The notes below the pieces were generated by a model. That model had not been told where the DNA came from and ran no database searches. It saw only the letters and a list, made by a program, of their open reading frames with translations. DNA of 64,000 bases from Escherichia coli. GTDB lineage: Bacteria > Pseudomonadota > Gammaproteobacteria > Enterobacterales > Enterobacteriaceae. Shown piece by piece: positions 1 through 39,167 of the stretch (within the stretch, counting starts at the first letter, position 1; every line of letters begins with the position of its first letter). The position numbers and the translations under genes were made by a program. The stretch lies in the NCBI RefSeq assembly GCF_003019035.1, contig NZ_CP027448.1. One strand, written 5' to 3'.

Positions 1-539
1 CGCTGTCTGTTTTCCCATTCAACACGACTGCGGCGCGCAGCAACCACTGCATCCTCAGACACATCAAGGGCGGCAAATAGCGCCGGTGTGAACGTGATAT
101 TGGTCGGAATGTAGCACCCGATAAGCGGATCATATTCCGTCTGGTAGGTAATCAGTCCCAGCTCTGCAAGGAACGTCAAGGCTCGGGTGGCCCGGGTGAT
201 GGAGAGTTTTCCGGCAGCAGACTCCGTCGCCAGTCCGCACTCAATGGCCAGCGTAGTGATGGAGCACTGGACGCGGTTGGCCAGCGGGTCATAGTGAAAA
301 CACAGCCCCTGCAGCAGCGCATCAATAGCCCGGCGACGCAGTACCGGTGGCATGCGCCGACGCAGTCCCTTCGAACGGGCATGTGCCACATGAATGGCGA
401 AATCAAAACGGGAGGTGAAGTCCACCGCCTTTTCCATCAGTTTTTCGCAGAACTTCAGCGTTCCGGCACCTTCACGGGGTGTGAATACCGGATTCGGGTT
501 CTTTACCTGGCGGTAATACGTTTGTTGAAGATCAGTCAC
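1..539 (-). CDS. repA1: RepA1 replication initiator, 5' part only (gene continues beyond window start)
   Basis: Manual minus-strand translation from a GTG at 539..537 gives [39 protein letters not shown]..., recognisable as IncFII RepA1; position downstream of copB/copA fits. Confidence 0.75.
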
Positions 540-606
540 ACCATCCTGCACTTACAATGCGCAGAAGGAGTGAGCACAGAAAGAAGTCTTGAACTTTTCC
601 GGGCAT
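532..606 (-). CDS. tap: Tap-like 24-aa leader peptide translationally coupled to repA1
   Basis: Minus-strand [27 protein letters not shown] whose stop overlaps the repA1 GTG; expected position in a RepFIIA control region. Confidence 0.5.
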
Positions 607-611
607 ATAAC

Positions 612-708
612 TATACTCCCCGCATAGCTGAATTGTTGGCTATACGGTTTTTAGATGGCCCCGGTAATCTTTCATGTCGCCAAACTTGAAGAAGATTATC
701 GGGGTTTT
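612..708 (+). ncRNA. copA: CopA-like antisense RNA (replication copy-number control)
   Basis: Two stem-loops on the plus strand (about 620..648 and 658..704) followed by a T-run at 705..708, antisense to the repA leader; ends approximate. Confidence 0.5.
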
Positions 709-822
709 CACTTTTCTGGCTCCTGTAAATCCACATCAGAACCGGTTCCCTGCCACCTTATGGCGTGGCCAGCCACAAAATTCCTTAAACGATCAGCAAT
801 CTATCACTCACGCCTGAGATAA

Positions 823-850
823 GCAATAATGTGAATATTCACATTATTGC
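823..850. promoter_or_regulatory. 28-bp perfect palindrome spanning the copB stop; candidate CopB operator at the repA promoter
   Basis: gcaataatgtgaat|attcacattattgc read directly; functional assignment is inference from RepFIIA biology. Confidence 0.4.
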
Positions 851-1096
851 TCTGCGTTTCAGCTCTGATTCAATCAGTTTTTCAAGCATCTGCGCCTGGG
901 TAATACCTTCCTCATCTGCCAGTTCACTCAGCCTGTCTTTTAAACGGGCCTGGATAACCGCATGAAAAGCCTTATGAGTGTTGCTTCTGCGAGCCAGAGA
1001 AGCCCTTTGCCTCTCTCTGGCCGGAACAGGGTTACCTTTCCGGTATGCACGCTTGTTACCTGATGAGGAAGTCACTGCATTTTCTGTCTGCGACAT
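839..1096 (-). CDS. copB: CopB/RepA2 replication regulatory protein
   Basis: 85-aa [16 protein letters not shown]...[19 protein letters not shown], recognisable as IncFII CopB; upstream of copA/repA1 as expected. Confidence 0.85.
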
Positions 1097-3429: not shown

Positions 3430-3456
3430 CCTCCTCTCTCTGAGGGAGGCTTTTTT
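3430..3456 (+). terminator. Hairpin plus T-run (plus-strand orientation), role unclear
   Basis: gcctcc-loop-ggaggc followed by tttttt immediately before the finO stop region. Confidence 0.3.
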
Positions 3457-4016
3457 CATTTCTCATCAAGCACGGCCTGAAGTTCTGCCTTTATCCGGTT
3501 CTGGCGGCGGATTTTATCCAGACGCGTTGCCGCATACGCTTCCTCCTCCTGAGAAATATGCTCCGTCACATACCCTTCCGTGTCATACCGGCAGGCACCG
3601 GCTTTCATGGCACACAGATAGCTTTCTGAACGGGTGATGGCCTTCAGCGCCCTGCGCAGTTTTTTATGCGAGAGTGGGATATTCCGCTGCGCCACGTCTT
3701 CCATTAACACGTCCCGGATACCACAGGCCAGAAGCCGGGGTGTGTCACCGTCAAACAATCCCGGCCACCAGGGCTTCAGGGTGTTCACGGCCTCATCCAG
3801 CGTGGGCAGGTTCAGATAAATGGACAGCGCCTGTCTGGCCTGCGCTTTTTTTGCCGCCAGCTCCGCTTCCCGGGCTGCTTTCTCGGCCAGCTTCTGCTTT
3901 TTCACCTTCCATTTTGGTGGCGTGGTGACATTGATGATGGTTTTCCGGCTGCGGACAGGCGTCTCTCCTTCCGTTTTCCGCTTCAGTGTCAGTACAGGTC
4001 GTTTTTGCTCTGCCAT
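3456..4016 (-). CDS. finO: FinO fertility inhibition protein (RNA chaperone for FinP)
   Basis: ORF contains [40 protein letters not shown]..., near-identical to F/R100 FinO; start set at the internal Met, track ORF starts at 4091. Confidence 0.9.
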
Positions 4017-4118
4017 GCTTACTCTGACCTTCGTGAAAATATGCCCTGCAGGCCGTTGAAACAACTCATCGTAACAGGAAGTTAATTTCAACGACCTTTA
4101 ACGTATAAATACTGACAA

Positions 4119-37344: not shown

Positions 37345-37400
37345 AAACTTGTTTTTGCGTGGGGTGTGGTGCTTTTGGTGGTGAGAATCACCAACCTGTT
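37345..37400 (+). other. oriT: oriT nic region (F-type relaxase site)
   Basis: tttgcgtggggtgt|ggtgcttttggtggtgag matches the F-family nic motif as I remember it, with the adjacent inverted repeat ggtggtga/tcaccaacc; lies between traM and gene X. Confidence 0.8.
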
Positions 37401-37458
37401 GAGCCTTTTTGTGGAGTTGGTTAAATTATTTACGGATAAAGTCACCAGAGGTGGAAAA

Positions 37459-37968
37459 ATGAAAAAATGGATGTTAGCCATCTGCTTGATGTTTATAAAT
37501 GAGATCTGCCATGCCACTGATTGCTTTGATCTTGCAGGCTGGGATTACAAAATAGATCCTGATTTACTGAGAGCAATATCATGGAAAGAATCCCGTTACC
37601 GGGTTAATGCCATCGGTATTAATCCGGTAACGGGATATGGCAGCGGACTGATGCAGGTAGATTCCCAGCATTTTAACGAACTGGCCCGCTACGGAATTAA
37701 GCCAGAACATCTGACAACAGATCCCTGCATGAACATTTATACCGGTGCTTATTATCTGGCAATAGCATTTAAAAAATGGGGCGTCACCTGGGAGGCCGTT
37801 GGTGCATACAATGCAGGATTCAGGAAATCCGAACGCCAGAACCAGAGACGTCTTGCCTACGCATCAGAGGTTTACCGGATTTATACCGGGATAAAAAGCA
37901 GTAAAGGTATCCGGCTTCCGGCCACGAAGAAATCACTTCCGGAAATTAACAGCGTGCAGAACAATTAA
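37459..37968 (+). CDS. Gene X / Orf169 lytic transglycosylase
   Basis: ORF contains [57 protein letters not shown]..., matching F orf169; start set at the internal Met, track ORF starts at 37366. Confidence 0.9.
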
Positions 37969-38220
37969 TCTTACAGATATTGTCAGATACCGGTTATGCC
38001 GCAAAAGCGGCATGGAAGGCCACACACAAAAATATCATATGAGTGACAATACTGACTGGCCGAAGCCCCGCGAAGAGGTAACCCATCTTATATATACCCG
38101 GTAACTGCGCAGCCTCCTGCCAGACCATTTTTCGCGGGCACAATATTTACAGACAACCGGAAATCCGGTCGATGAAATTGAGGTATATCAGACGACACAG
38201 CAATGCCGAAAAATGATAAT

Positions 38221-38260
38221 ATAAGTAAAGCCCCGAAAAATTTTTCGGGGCTTTACTTAT
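38221..38260. terminator. 40-bp perfect palindrome, candidate bidirectional terminator between convergent genes
   Basis: ataagtaaagccccgaaaaa|tttttcggggctttacttat; GC stem with A/T runs on both sides. Confidence 0.6.
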
Positions 38261-38378
38261 ATTATCATGACTTCCACTTTCTGAACTGTTCGGCAATCAC
38301 CCATAACGCCTTGTTGATTCTTATATCACCATCAATACCTGTAATGGCTCTTGTCCTGGTATTTTTCCCGGAGGCACT

Positions 38379-39167
38379 TCACCCCGATAATCCACCTTTT
38401 ATCATATTCTCCTGAACCCGCTGCCAGGTTGTCCAGAGATCGTTCTGTTTGTCTTCCCGACGACGGGGAGTAATTATCTGTTCAGGTGTCACTGGCGTTT
38501 TATTTTCATCTTCATACCTGACCATCAGTGCAGCTCTGCCAAATAAATGTTGCTCGTCACTGTTAAGATGAATTTCTTTCATCGCCTCCATATTATCAGT
38601 GACCTTATCAAAGACACCGAGCACTTCATACGCTCCCTCGATAACCTGCCCGACAATATCACCTTTATGTGGAACGCGGATTTCGCCAAAATTATTTCCG
38701 CACACCAGGCCATTTGTGCAGACAAAACGAAAAATTCCGGGGATCATCTGATAACTGGATGAACCATCATGTGAATTAAGCAGGATAATTTCAGGAGCTT
38801 CCTGTCCGTTAATATGCCCTTCCCTGCGAAGACGTAACATATGTTTACTGTATTCGCGACGTCCCAAATCACGAACCCGACTCTGACAGGCAAAGAATGG
38901 CTGGAAACCTTCATCACGTAACTTATTGATGATATTGATTGTTGGAATATACGTATAACGTTCACTCCGGGACTCATGTTTATCACCGGAAAATACCGAA
39001 GGCACGAACTGCATTAATTCATCATCCGTTAAAGGACGTTCACGGCGGATGGAATTATACCGACCAAAACGGGAAGCTAATCGCATAACAGCTACTCCTT
39101 TATGAAAGAATAAATTTAATAAAAAATTTTTCCGCTTAATATCATCCCCCCTGATCTCCATTAACAA
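38379..39167 (-). CDS. Leading-region protein, DUF932-like
   Basis: 262-aa ORF convergent with gene X, the position of F orf273; family assignment from memory only. Confidence 0.6.
   Translation of the reverse strand: MLMEIRGDDIKRKNFLLNLFFHKGVAVMRLASRFGRYNSIRRERPLTDDELMQFVPSVFSGDKHESRSERYTYIPTINIINKLRDEGFQPFFACQSRVRDLGRREYSKHMLRLRREGHINGQEAPEIILLNSHDGSSSYQMIPGIFRFVCTNGLVCGNNFGEIRVPHKGDIVGQVIEGAYEVLGVFDKVTDNMEAMKEIHLNSDEQHLFGRAALMVRYEDENKTPVTPEQIITPRRREDKQNDLWTTWQRVQENMIKGGLSG

Follow-up and report, generated by a model that had tools for sequence, protein, structure and literature searches.

A perfect 30-bp palindrome lies across the end of copB and the putative repA promoter (PrepA) of a minus-strand, IncFII-family (RepFIC-type) replicon in the Escherichia coli DNA analyzed here, a stretch of 64,000 nucleotides to which we refer as the window. 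Comparison with sibling alleles leads us to a two-layer reading that we consider probable, in which the position of the palindrome reflects a junction under CopB control and the perfect symmetry would have been produced by a template switch and would since have corrected itself. The control region is of a known kind and lies at a known place; the twist is evolutionary, with the perfect symmetry as a probable mutational product.

Layout of the replicon

The genes for copB, the CopA RNA, tap, and repA1 follow the canonical IncFII order of a minus-strand replicon, with these features:

1..539, minus strand: 5' part of repA1, with a GTG start at 539..537, running off the start of the window; homologous loci are annotated as incFII family RepA
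532..606, minus strand: tap leader peptide, 24 aa; open reading frame, named tap in homologous loci
589..617, plus strand: CopA promoter-like site TTGAAC-17-TATACT, just upstream of CopA, from a promoter scan
624..713, plus strand: CopA antisense RNA gene (Rfam RF00042, 97.8 bits, E=1.5e-18)
798..806, minus strand: putative extended -10 of PrepA, TGATAGATT (the TGnTAGATT block), from the alignment, where conservation across all types resumes with this block at the end of the variable cassette
821..826, minus strand: putative -35 hexamer of PrepA, TTGCTT, with 3 of 6 consensus matches, from reading of the sequence
822..836, minus strand: promoter-side arm of the palindrome, containing TTGCT of the -35, near-invariant in RepFIC-type alleles, and the putative template of the other arm
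827, minus strand: promoter-side member of a variable pair, immediately 5' of the -35 hexamer; A in the window, with C and T in the RM and KM alleles, respectively
822..851: 30-bp perfect palindrome, AGCAATAATGTGAAT|ATTCACATTATTGCT in minus-strand reading, equal to its own reverse complement
837..851, minus strand: copB-side arm, made up of the last base of R82, codons A83, I84, and M85, the TGA stop, and the next two bases; the arm that would have been overwritten
846, minus strand: copB-side member of the variable pair, at the second position of codon 84; the window has T (Ile), against G (Arg) in RM and A (Lys) in KM alleles
839..1096, minus strand: copB (repA2), 85 aa, RepFIC type, ribbon-helix-helix repressor family, C-terminus ...RRAIM, from its open reading frame and Pfam

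The CopB protein matched the Pfam family RepB-RCR_reg (PF10723, E=3.4e-31) and, weakly, RHH_5 and RHH_1 (RHH_1 E = 0.041), and it clusters with COPB1_ECOLI of the F plasmid; it is therefore of the RepFIC/F type and not of the RepFIIA type of R1 or R100. The Pfam match spans residues 1 to 82 of 85, which suggests that the last CopB residues probably lie outside the folded domain. A PDB sequence search with CopB returned no meaningful structure match.

On the minus strand between finO (3456-4091) and copB lie an open reading frame of the DUF2726 family (1336-1995) and one with an NYN domain (2078-2740), whereas in related plasmids a Hok/Gef toxin gene lies directly upstream of copB; because the window and its relatives have different genes there, the upstream edge of the replicon appears to be a recombination boundary.

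Extent of the palindrome and its improbability by chance

The sequence-only reading of this DNA had described a 28-bp perfect palindrome overlapping the copB stop codon. The segment at 823-850, gcaataatgtgaatattcacattattgc, does equal its own reverse complement, but the symmetry gains one more pair on each side (a822/t851), so that the true extent is 30 bp (822-851), divided into arms 822-836 and 837-851 with no spacer. The 3' end of copB reads ...AGA GCA ATA ATG TGA on the minus strand, and the overlap was borne out, with the stop (841..839) falling inside the 837-851 arm. Perfect palindromes with arms of at least 15 are expected 5.9e-5 times by chance in a 64-kb window, an expectation at which we reject a chance origin, and the longest arm in 200 Markov-1 simulated 64-kb sequences ranged from 6 to 12.

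An assembly artefact is rejected because the same or sister perfect palindromes are found in the finished plasmids CP043829, CP062205, and CP025844; they also occur in hundreds of draft and metagenome contigs. The 96-bp junction of the window had no exact match in RefSeq complete E. coli genomes or in PLSDB (best 97.9%). A palindrome identical to that of the window is present in a draft genome (GCA_020350545.1; locus L019), and the scored flanks of this locus (120 nt upstream, copB, and 130 nt downstream) are identical as well.

A larger perfect palindrome of 56 bp, ATGATAATATAAGTAAAGCCCCGAAAAA|TTTTTCGGGGCTTTACTTATATTATCAT, is located at 38213-38268, between the 3' ends of the convergent open reading frames 37366-37968 (plus strand) and 38379-39167 (minus strand). 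The former is transglycosylase-like, with an R100 homologue annotated as an SLT domain protein, and the position of the latter matches that of the DUF932 gene of R100. The 56-bp palindrome looks like a bidirectional intrinsic terminator; perfect arms of 28 bp far exceed what chance would give, and the palindrome could be another repeat perfected by template switching.

The palindrome lies over the putative repA promoter

PrepA was not reported by a consensus promoter scan because its -35 has only 3 of 6 consensus bases; its placement here comes from conservation across cassette types and not from mapping. An alignment of eight copB cassette types showed near-identity upstream of copB, a variable block that begins inside the first ~25 codons of copB and stops just short of the -10, and near-identity again after TGnTAGATT, a block conserved in all eight types. 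The window hexamer TTGCTT sits 17 nt upstream of this block, and the palindrome covers five of its bases (TTGCT). Other cassette types also have a TTGnnn hexamer 17 nt upstream of TAGATT, with the exception of the R1-type locus L010 (TTTACT, 16 nt). These patterns support TAGATT as the -10 of PrepA, and they support a view in which the DNA-binding part of CopB is co-inherited with the -35 and spacer as a single specificity cassette.

By analogy with characterized relatives, the position of the palindrome supports its assignment to the CopB control region. The sequence-only reading had placed it at the CopB-repressed repA promoter of a RepFIIA replicon; position and replicon context agree with this, but the CopB allele is of the RepFIC type. 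The target of R1 CopB, from the work of Riise and Molin in 1986, is reportedly a dyad over the -35. If the R1 mapping is followed, the region of the inner dyad TGTGAAT|ATTCACA would be the expected seat of tetrameric CopB, which would there block RNA polymerase. The palindrome may contain only part of the true CopB contacts, or these may be made elsewhere in the -35 and spacer, since the copB-side arm varies freely among functional sibling alleles and the inner promoter arm of one locus (L003) differs; this locus has the same beta-strand as the window type (HKAFHAVIQ) and a different promoter-side inner arm (ATTTGCG).

An inverted repeat with 4-bp arms is also present in the PrepA spacer, between the -35 and the -10 (807-818; minus strand CTCAGGCGTGAG). 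It formed a minor hairpin in all folds and is at chance level on its own, and the real CopB target could include it.

Comparison with R1 and other cassette types

Tetrameric CopB binds in the promoter region of PrepA and thereby represses it (PMC5717011, PMC4344636, PMC12779154), and two of these sources (PMC5717011 and PMC12779154) cite Riise & Molin 1986 for CopB binding at the repA promoter region. The CopB/PrepA system of R1 is similar to that of the window in its copB-PrepA-copA/tap-repA order, its PF10723 repressor, and its dyad over the stop and the -35, and this likeness suggests that the window CopB, too, would work at the promoter region as a tetramer (PMC5717011). The two types differ in the CopB beta-strand (HKEIKVFV in the R1 type, HKAFHAVIQ in the window) and in the dyad, which is 9+1+9 in the R1 type and 15+15 without a spacer in the window, with a different sequence.

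Dyads are found at the matching place in three other cassette types, each of the three having its own dyad across the stop codon and beside the -35. In the R1-type locus L010 this is AAAGTAAAG-A-CTTTACTTT (9+1+9), which lies over the TAA stop and the TTTACT -35; the CopB of this locus is Swiss-Prot COPB3_ECOLX, and we take its cassette to be the plasmid R1 sequence. Locus L011 has AGAAAGTAACT-A-AGTTACCTTCT (11+1+11 at 91%), and locus L012 has ATGTGAT-GGG-ATCACAT (7+3+7). In R100 (NC_002134), no dyad of 10 bp or more is present at the junction. The comparison with R1 and R100 that the sequence-only reading had proposed gave a dyad at the matching place in the R1-type locus and no long dyad in R100, so that R100 offers no support for conservation of the palindrome.

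In yet another CopB type (...SAFS), one synonymous TTC-to-TTT change distinguishes loci L006/L007 from L004/L005 and results in a perfect 6+4+6 repeat, TTTTAGCTAACTAAAA, across the TAA stop, possibly by the same arm-homogenising process on a small scale.

A second point of reference is CopG (RepA) of pMV158/pLS1, which like the window CopB is a small ribbon-helix-helix copy-number repressor, with rep co-transcribed, and which binds a 13-bp symmetric operator element at the promoter (PMC5717011). The promoter that CopG controls is its own, upstream of copG, whereas the putative target in the window is on the downstream side of copB and runs into its 3' end, and the sequence similarity between the two proteins is weak (RHH_1 E = 0.041).

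Perfect symmetry is confined to one sublineage of RepFIC-type alleles

We fetched 56 comparison loci; 47 loci with RepFIC-type CopB, the window included, could be scored at the junction. The alleles, designated by the end of CopB, were as follows:

TL, TAA stop: 10/15 pairs, 11 loci, F-plasmid type
TL, TGA stop: 11/15 pairs, 1 locus (L014)
TS: 9/15 pairs, 1 locus (L002)
SS: 8/15 pairs, 6 loci
AS: 8/15 pairs, 5 loci
IS: 11/15 pairs, 1 locus (L013)
KSL: 6/15 pairs, 1 locus (L003), more distant
RM, G-C at 846/827: 15/15 pairs, 11 loci, perfect
KM, A-T at 846/827: 15/15 pairs, 5 loci, perfect
IM, T-A at 846/827: 15/15 pairs, 2 loci, perfect (the window and L019)
L020 (IM): 14/15 pairs, with T at 846 and C retained at 827
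L016 and L040: 14/15 pairs, central T-to-C change
L025: 14/15 pairs, promoter-side T-to-C change

The four loci at 14/15 pairs derive from perfect alleles and are one pair short of full symmetry. Only one sublineage has the perfect form, which occurs there on several plasmid backbones. Collection blocks listing the exact protein numbered 8815 for TL, 1443 for SS, 1208 for RM, 113 for AS, 111 for IM, and 57 for KM.

Variation is concentrated in the copB-side arm, with seven variable positions compared to essentially one in the promoter-side arm. Codons 84 and 85 of CopB (842-847) are hypervariable (TL, TS, SS, AS, IS, RM, IM, and KM) and the remaining protein is far less so across L001-L056. 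The full 28 to 30 bp is not conserved among replicons that share the CopB DNA-binding region; conservation is limited to the promoter-side arm and the greater part of the inner dyad. Identification of the 28-bp perfect symmetry as the CopB operator, which the sequence-only reading had favored, is not supported by this comparison, as siblings whose repA is intact and whose CopB has an unchanged DNA-binding region show pairing at only 8 to 11 of 15 positions. The related proposal that the sequence is constrained jointly by coding and binding is not supported either, since the copB-side arm is the most variable part of the gene and appears to have been overwritten by the promoter arm. The long perfect palindrome is dispensable for a working replicon, as is its full symmetry for CopB control, because the imperfect L014, SS, and AS alleles carry a full-length repA; absence of the palindrome from functional replicons, named in advance as an observation that would speak against an operator, was therefore found in part, in TL, SS, and AS alleles with an intact repA.

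The RepFIC copy of the F plasmid (L015 and L047-L056; F, F', and Hfr) has TAA in place of the TGA stop and has lost one more inner pair. Most of these loci have a truncated or interrupted repA, and the TAA change could represent decay of a disused control region.

A template switch as the probable origin of the perfect symmetry

The perfect alleles cluster tightly, with L014 as their neighbor; the junction of L014, AGCGACTTTGTGAAT|ATTCACATTCTTGCT, is paired at 11 of 15 positions with seven perfect inner pairs. Outside the palindrome, no difference separates L014 (RRATL, TGA stop) from the perfect allele L001 (RRARM) in 245 nt of coding sequence and 90 nt downstream (335 nt). Inside it there are four differences within 5 nt, all at mismatched (unpaired or G·T) copB-side positions, and each of the four changed bases in L001 is the Watson-Crick complement of the opposing promoter-side base. 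By our own estimate, four independent substitutions with this outcome, and nothing else in 335 nt, would have a probability of ~1e-10. All alleles outside the RM/KM/IM group, including the distant L003, are imperfect and have (C/T)TT(T/C)G at the matching copB-side positions; because this motif is common to every one of them, parsimony indicates that the imperfect state is ancestral and the perfect form derived. DNA of the L014 type folds into an inner stem-loop with a 5-bp stem and a 4-nt loop, as required for the priming of a switch.

Several studies have described processes of this kind. Imperfect inverted repeats become perfect through clustered change templated on the other arm (PMC7202029, PMC5941160), and those of proteobacteria are preferentially corrected to perfect (PMC5941160); template switching is also reported to create stems and compensatory changes (PMC8794818) and to expand promoter inverted repeats (PMC13100816). 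In the case of the window, the starting point would have been an imperfect inverted repeat in which 11 of the 15 positions were paired and the 7-bp inner stem was perfect. The nascent strand would have folded on the inner stem, copied the promoter-side arm, and gone back to the original template, and this single event would have corrected four mismatches in the copB-side arm and changed the C-terminus of CopB from TL to RM. Selection would simply tolerate the resulting palindrome, given that the last CopB residues would lie outside the folded domain. We infer template switching from its footprint; comparison of alleles points to the origin of the palindrome, and the mechanism is deduced from that pattern.

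Short-patch recombination from an unsampled donor, which would carry GCAAGAATGTGA, may have acted instead of a template switch, but the flanks of L014 and L001 are free of the accompanying changes that would speak for a diverged donor. We also considered descent of the window allele from L013, which likewise has A at 827; this was rejected since the coding sequence and flanks of the window are identical to those of L001/L014 and have 10 differences from L013. An L013-derived window allele may nevertheless have arisen via short-patch conversion.

Proposed maintenance of symmetry and concerted change at 846/827

Three Watson-Crick states (G-C, A-T, and T-A) are found at the 846/827 pair among the perfect alleles, whose flanks have between 0 and 3 differences from the window over 495 nt. 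Alleles with the three different pairs are separated by 0 to 2 flanking bases. Once perfect, the palindrome would correct itself, with a point change in one arm being either erased or copied across by the same mechanism, and the shifts from G-C to T-A (in the window) and from G-C to A-T would be concerted changes by template switching. Such self-correction would explain both the concerted changes and L020, a natural half-changed intermediate with T at 846 and C at 827. A self-correcting palindrome that selection tolerates is the account that we favor. Both concerted changes strike the same pair, and the imperfect L013 (NZ_CP049202.1, RRAIS) also has T-A there, with C/C in its relatives. A neutral templated process alone would not predict one pair recurring, which provides a hint of selection; the repeated change suggests a local hotspot, or selection on either base 827 (beside the -35) or codon 84.

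Quasipalindrome mutations in E. coli (the Ripley model; thyA, rpsL, and the lacZ QP5/QP6 reporters) leave the same footprint, which here comprises correction of 4/4 mismatches with unchanged flanks. Such mutations are stimulated by AZT and by ciprofloxacin (PMC7202029). The reporter cases are laboratory reversions, whereas the case in the window is natural, fixed, and widespread, affects a plasmid regulatory region, and has the C-terminus of a protein rewritten. In rRNA genes, Monttinen & Loytynoja 2022 (PMC8794818) described one-step formation of a perfect stem followed by concerted pair changes, as we propose here, and a further likeness is the expansion of an inverted repeat at the promoter site of a multimeric regulator in yeast GRE2 (Rozenfeld et al. 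2026; PMC13100816). Unlike rRNA genes and yeast promoters, the window presents a bacterial plasmid copy-control promoter lying over the coding end of its repressor, with a half-changed intermediate among the sampled loci.

Alternative explanations

Selection for a nucleic-acid structure, in the form of an RNA hairpin or a DNA cruciform, could also have kept the palindrome perfect, although we regard this as unlikely. The hairpin would form around the copB stop in the copB-tap-repA transcript that reads through from PcopB and would act on termination, mRNA decay, or the CopB:RepA ratio, while a cruciform at the -35 would render PrepA sensitive to supercoiling. The folding of the palindrome region is in keeping with both forms, with an RNA stem of ~14 bp (59-nt segment, minimum free energy -21.5 kcal/mol, z = -4.6, 0/200 shuffles as stable) and a DNA fold z-score of -5.9. 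The presence of G-C, A-T, and T-A at one stem pair in near-identical backgrounds is the classic covariation of a paired structure, and the perfect alleles are common (RM 1208, IM 111, and KM 57 blocks) and found on several plasmid backbones. However, only perfect alleles gave a significant RNA fold (z = -4.6 and -4.05), in contrast to L014 (-0.7), the F type (+0.6), and the SS type (+1.2); as these sibling alleles have the same CopB and an intact repA, the structure does not appear to be an ancestral requirement. The stem is not followed by a U-tract for termination, and it is shorter than the substrates of RNase III, which have a stem of about 20 bp or more. Template switching alone yields the same covariation without selection (PMC8794818), and the imperfect derivatives L016/L040, L025, and L020 persist in nature. 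A conserved structured RNA element was rejected since the sibling alleles do not fold significantly, and Rfam gave no match besides CopA. In an extended version of the structural explanation, to which we give somewhat less credence still, the stop-codon RNA hairpin or AT-centred -35 cruciform would provide the RepFIC sublineage with extra, CopB-independent control of copy number, with 846/827 as a tuning knob under diversifying selection.

Protein binding offers another route to symmetry. The whole 30 bp could be an optimised CopB operator, built by selected point mutations for tighter symmetric binding, which we think decidedly improbable even though a dyad is present at this position in four cassette types (the window, R1-type L010, L011, and L012), a dimer-of-dimers repressor would favor equal half-sites, and the perfect alleles are successful in nature. 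Four independent point mutations in an otherwise unchanged 335 nt are very improbable, and a protein that reads two half-sites does not predict a complementary change in the second half, as intramolecular pairing or templating does. The occurrence of three different pairs at one position further implies that base identity is not read there. The outer five pairs of the promoter-side arm seem to be set by the -35 and not by CopB specificity, and ACATTCTTG is common to six of the eight aligned cassette types, across different CopB types. Binding of a host factor (CRP or Fur) or intrinsic termination of copB is hardly credible as an explanation. When compared by eye with the consensus sequences, the core TGTGA...TCACA looks like two CRP half-sites and the window-specific AATAAT/ATTATT arms look like Fur-box hexamers. 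The CRP consensus, TGTGA-N6-TCACA, has 6 bp between its half-sites, and a CRP site was rejected on this ground, as the window has TGTGA-ATAT-TCACA with a spacer of 4 bp. A Fur site was rejected because the best ungapped match to the 19-bp consensus was 11/19 by hand count, and 10/19 in the commoner RM allele. We rejected a Rho-independent terminator as well, because the AT-rich stem is followed by TATCTCAGG and no T-run; a terminator scan reported nothing at the palindrome, and repA must be transcribed through it from PcopB (PMC5717011).

Implications

If the perfect symmetry was indeed produced and maintained by template switching, these alleles constitute a compact natural series in which a quasipalindrome became a perfect palindrome and was then kept perfect by concerted double changes, with the intermediate still extant. 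For annotation, the series cautions against taking perfect symmetry at a known operator position as the definition of the operator. The series would also provide a test case for how much of the apparent "compensatory evolution" in symmetric sites and stems is due to mutation rather than selection, and for how new repressor-operator specificities arise in plasmid incompatibility cassettes. The CopB-PrepA circuit governs the recovery of IncF resistance and virulence plasmids from low copy number, and our reading suggests that its control region can be rewritten in one mutational step, with the end of the repressor altered along with it.
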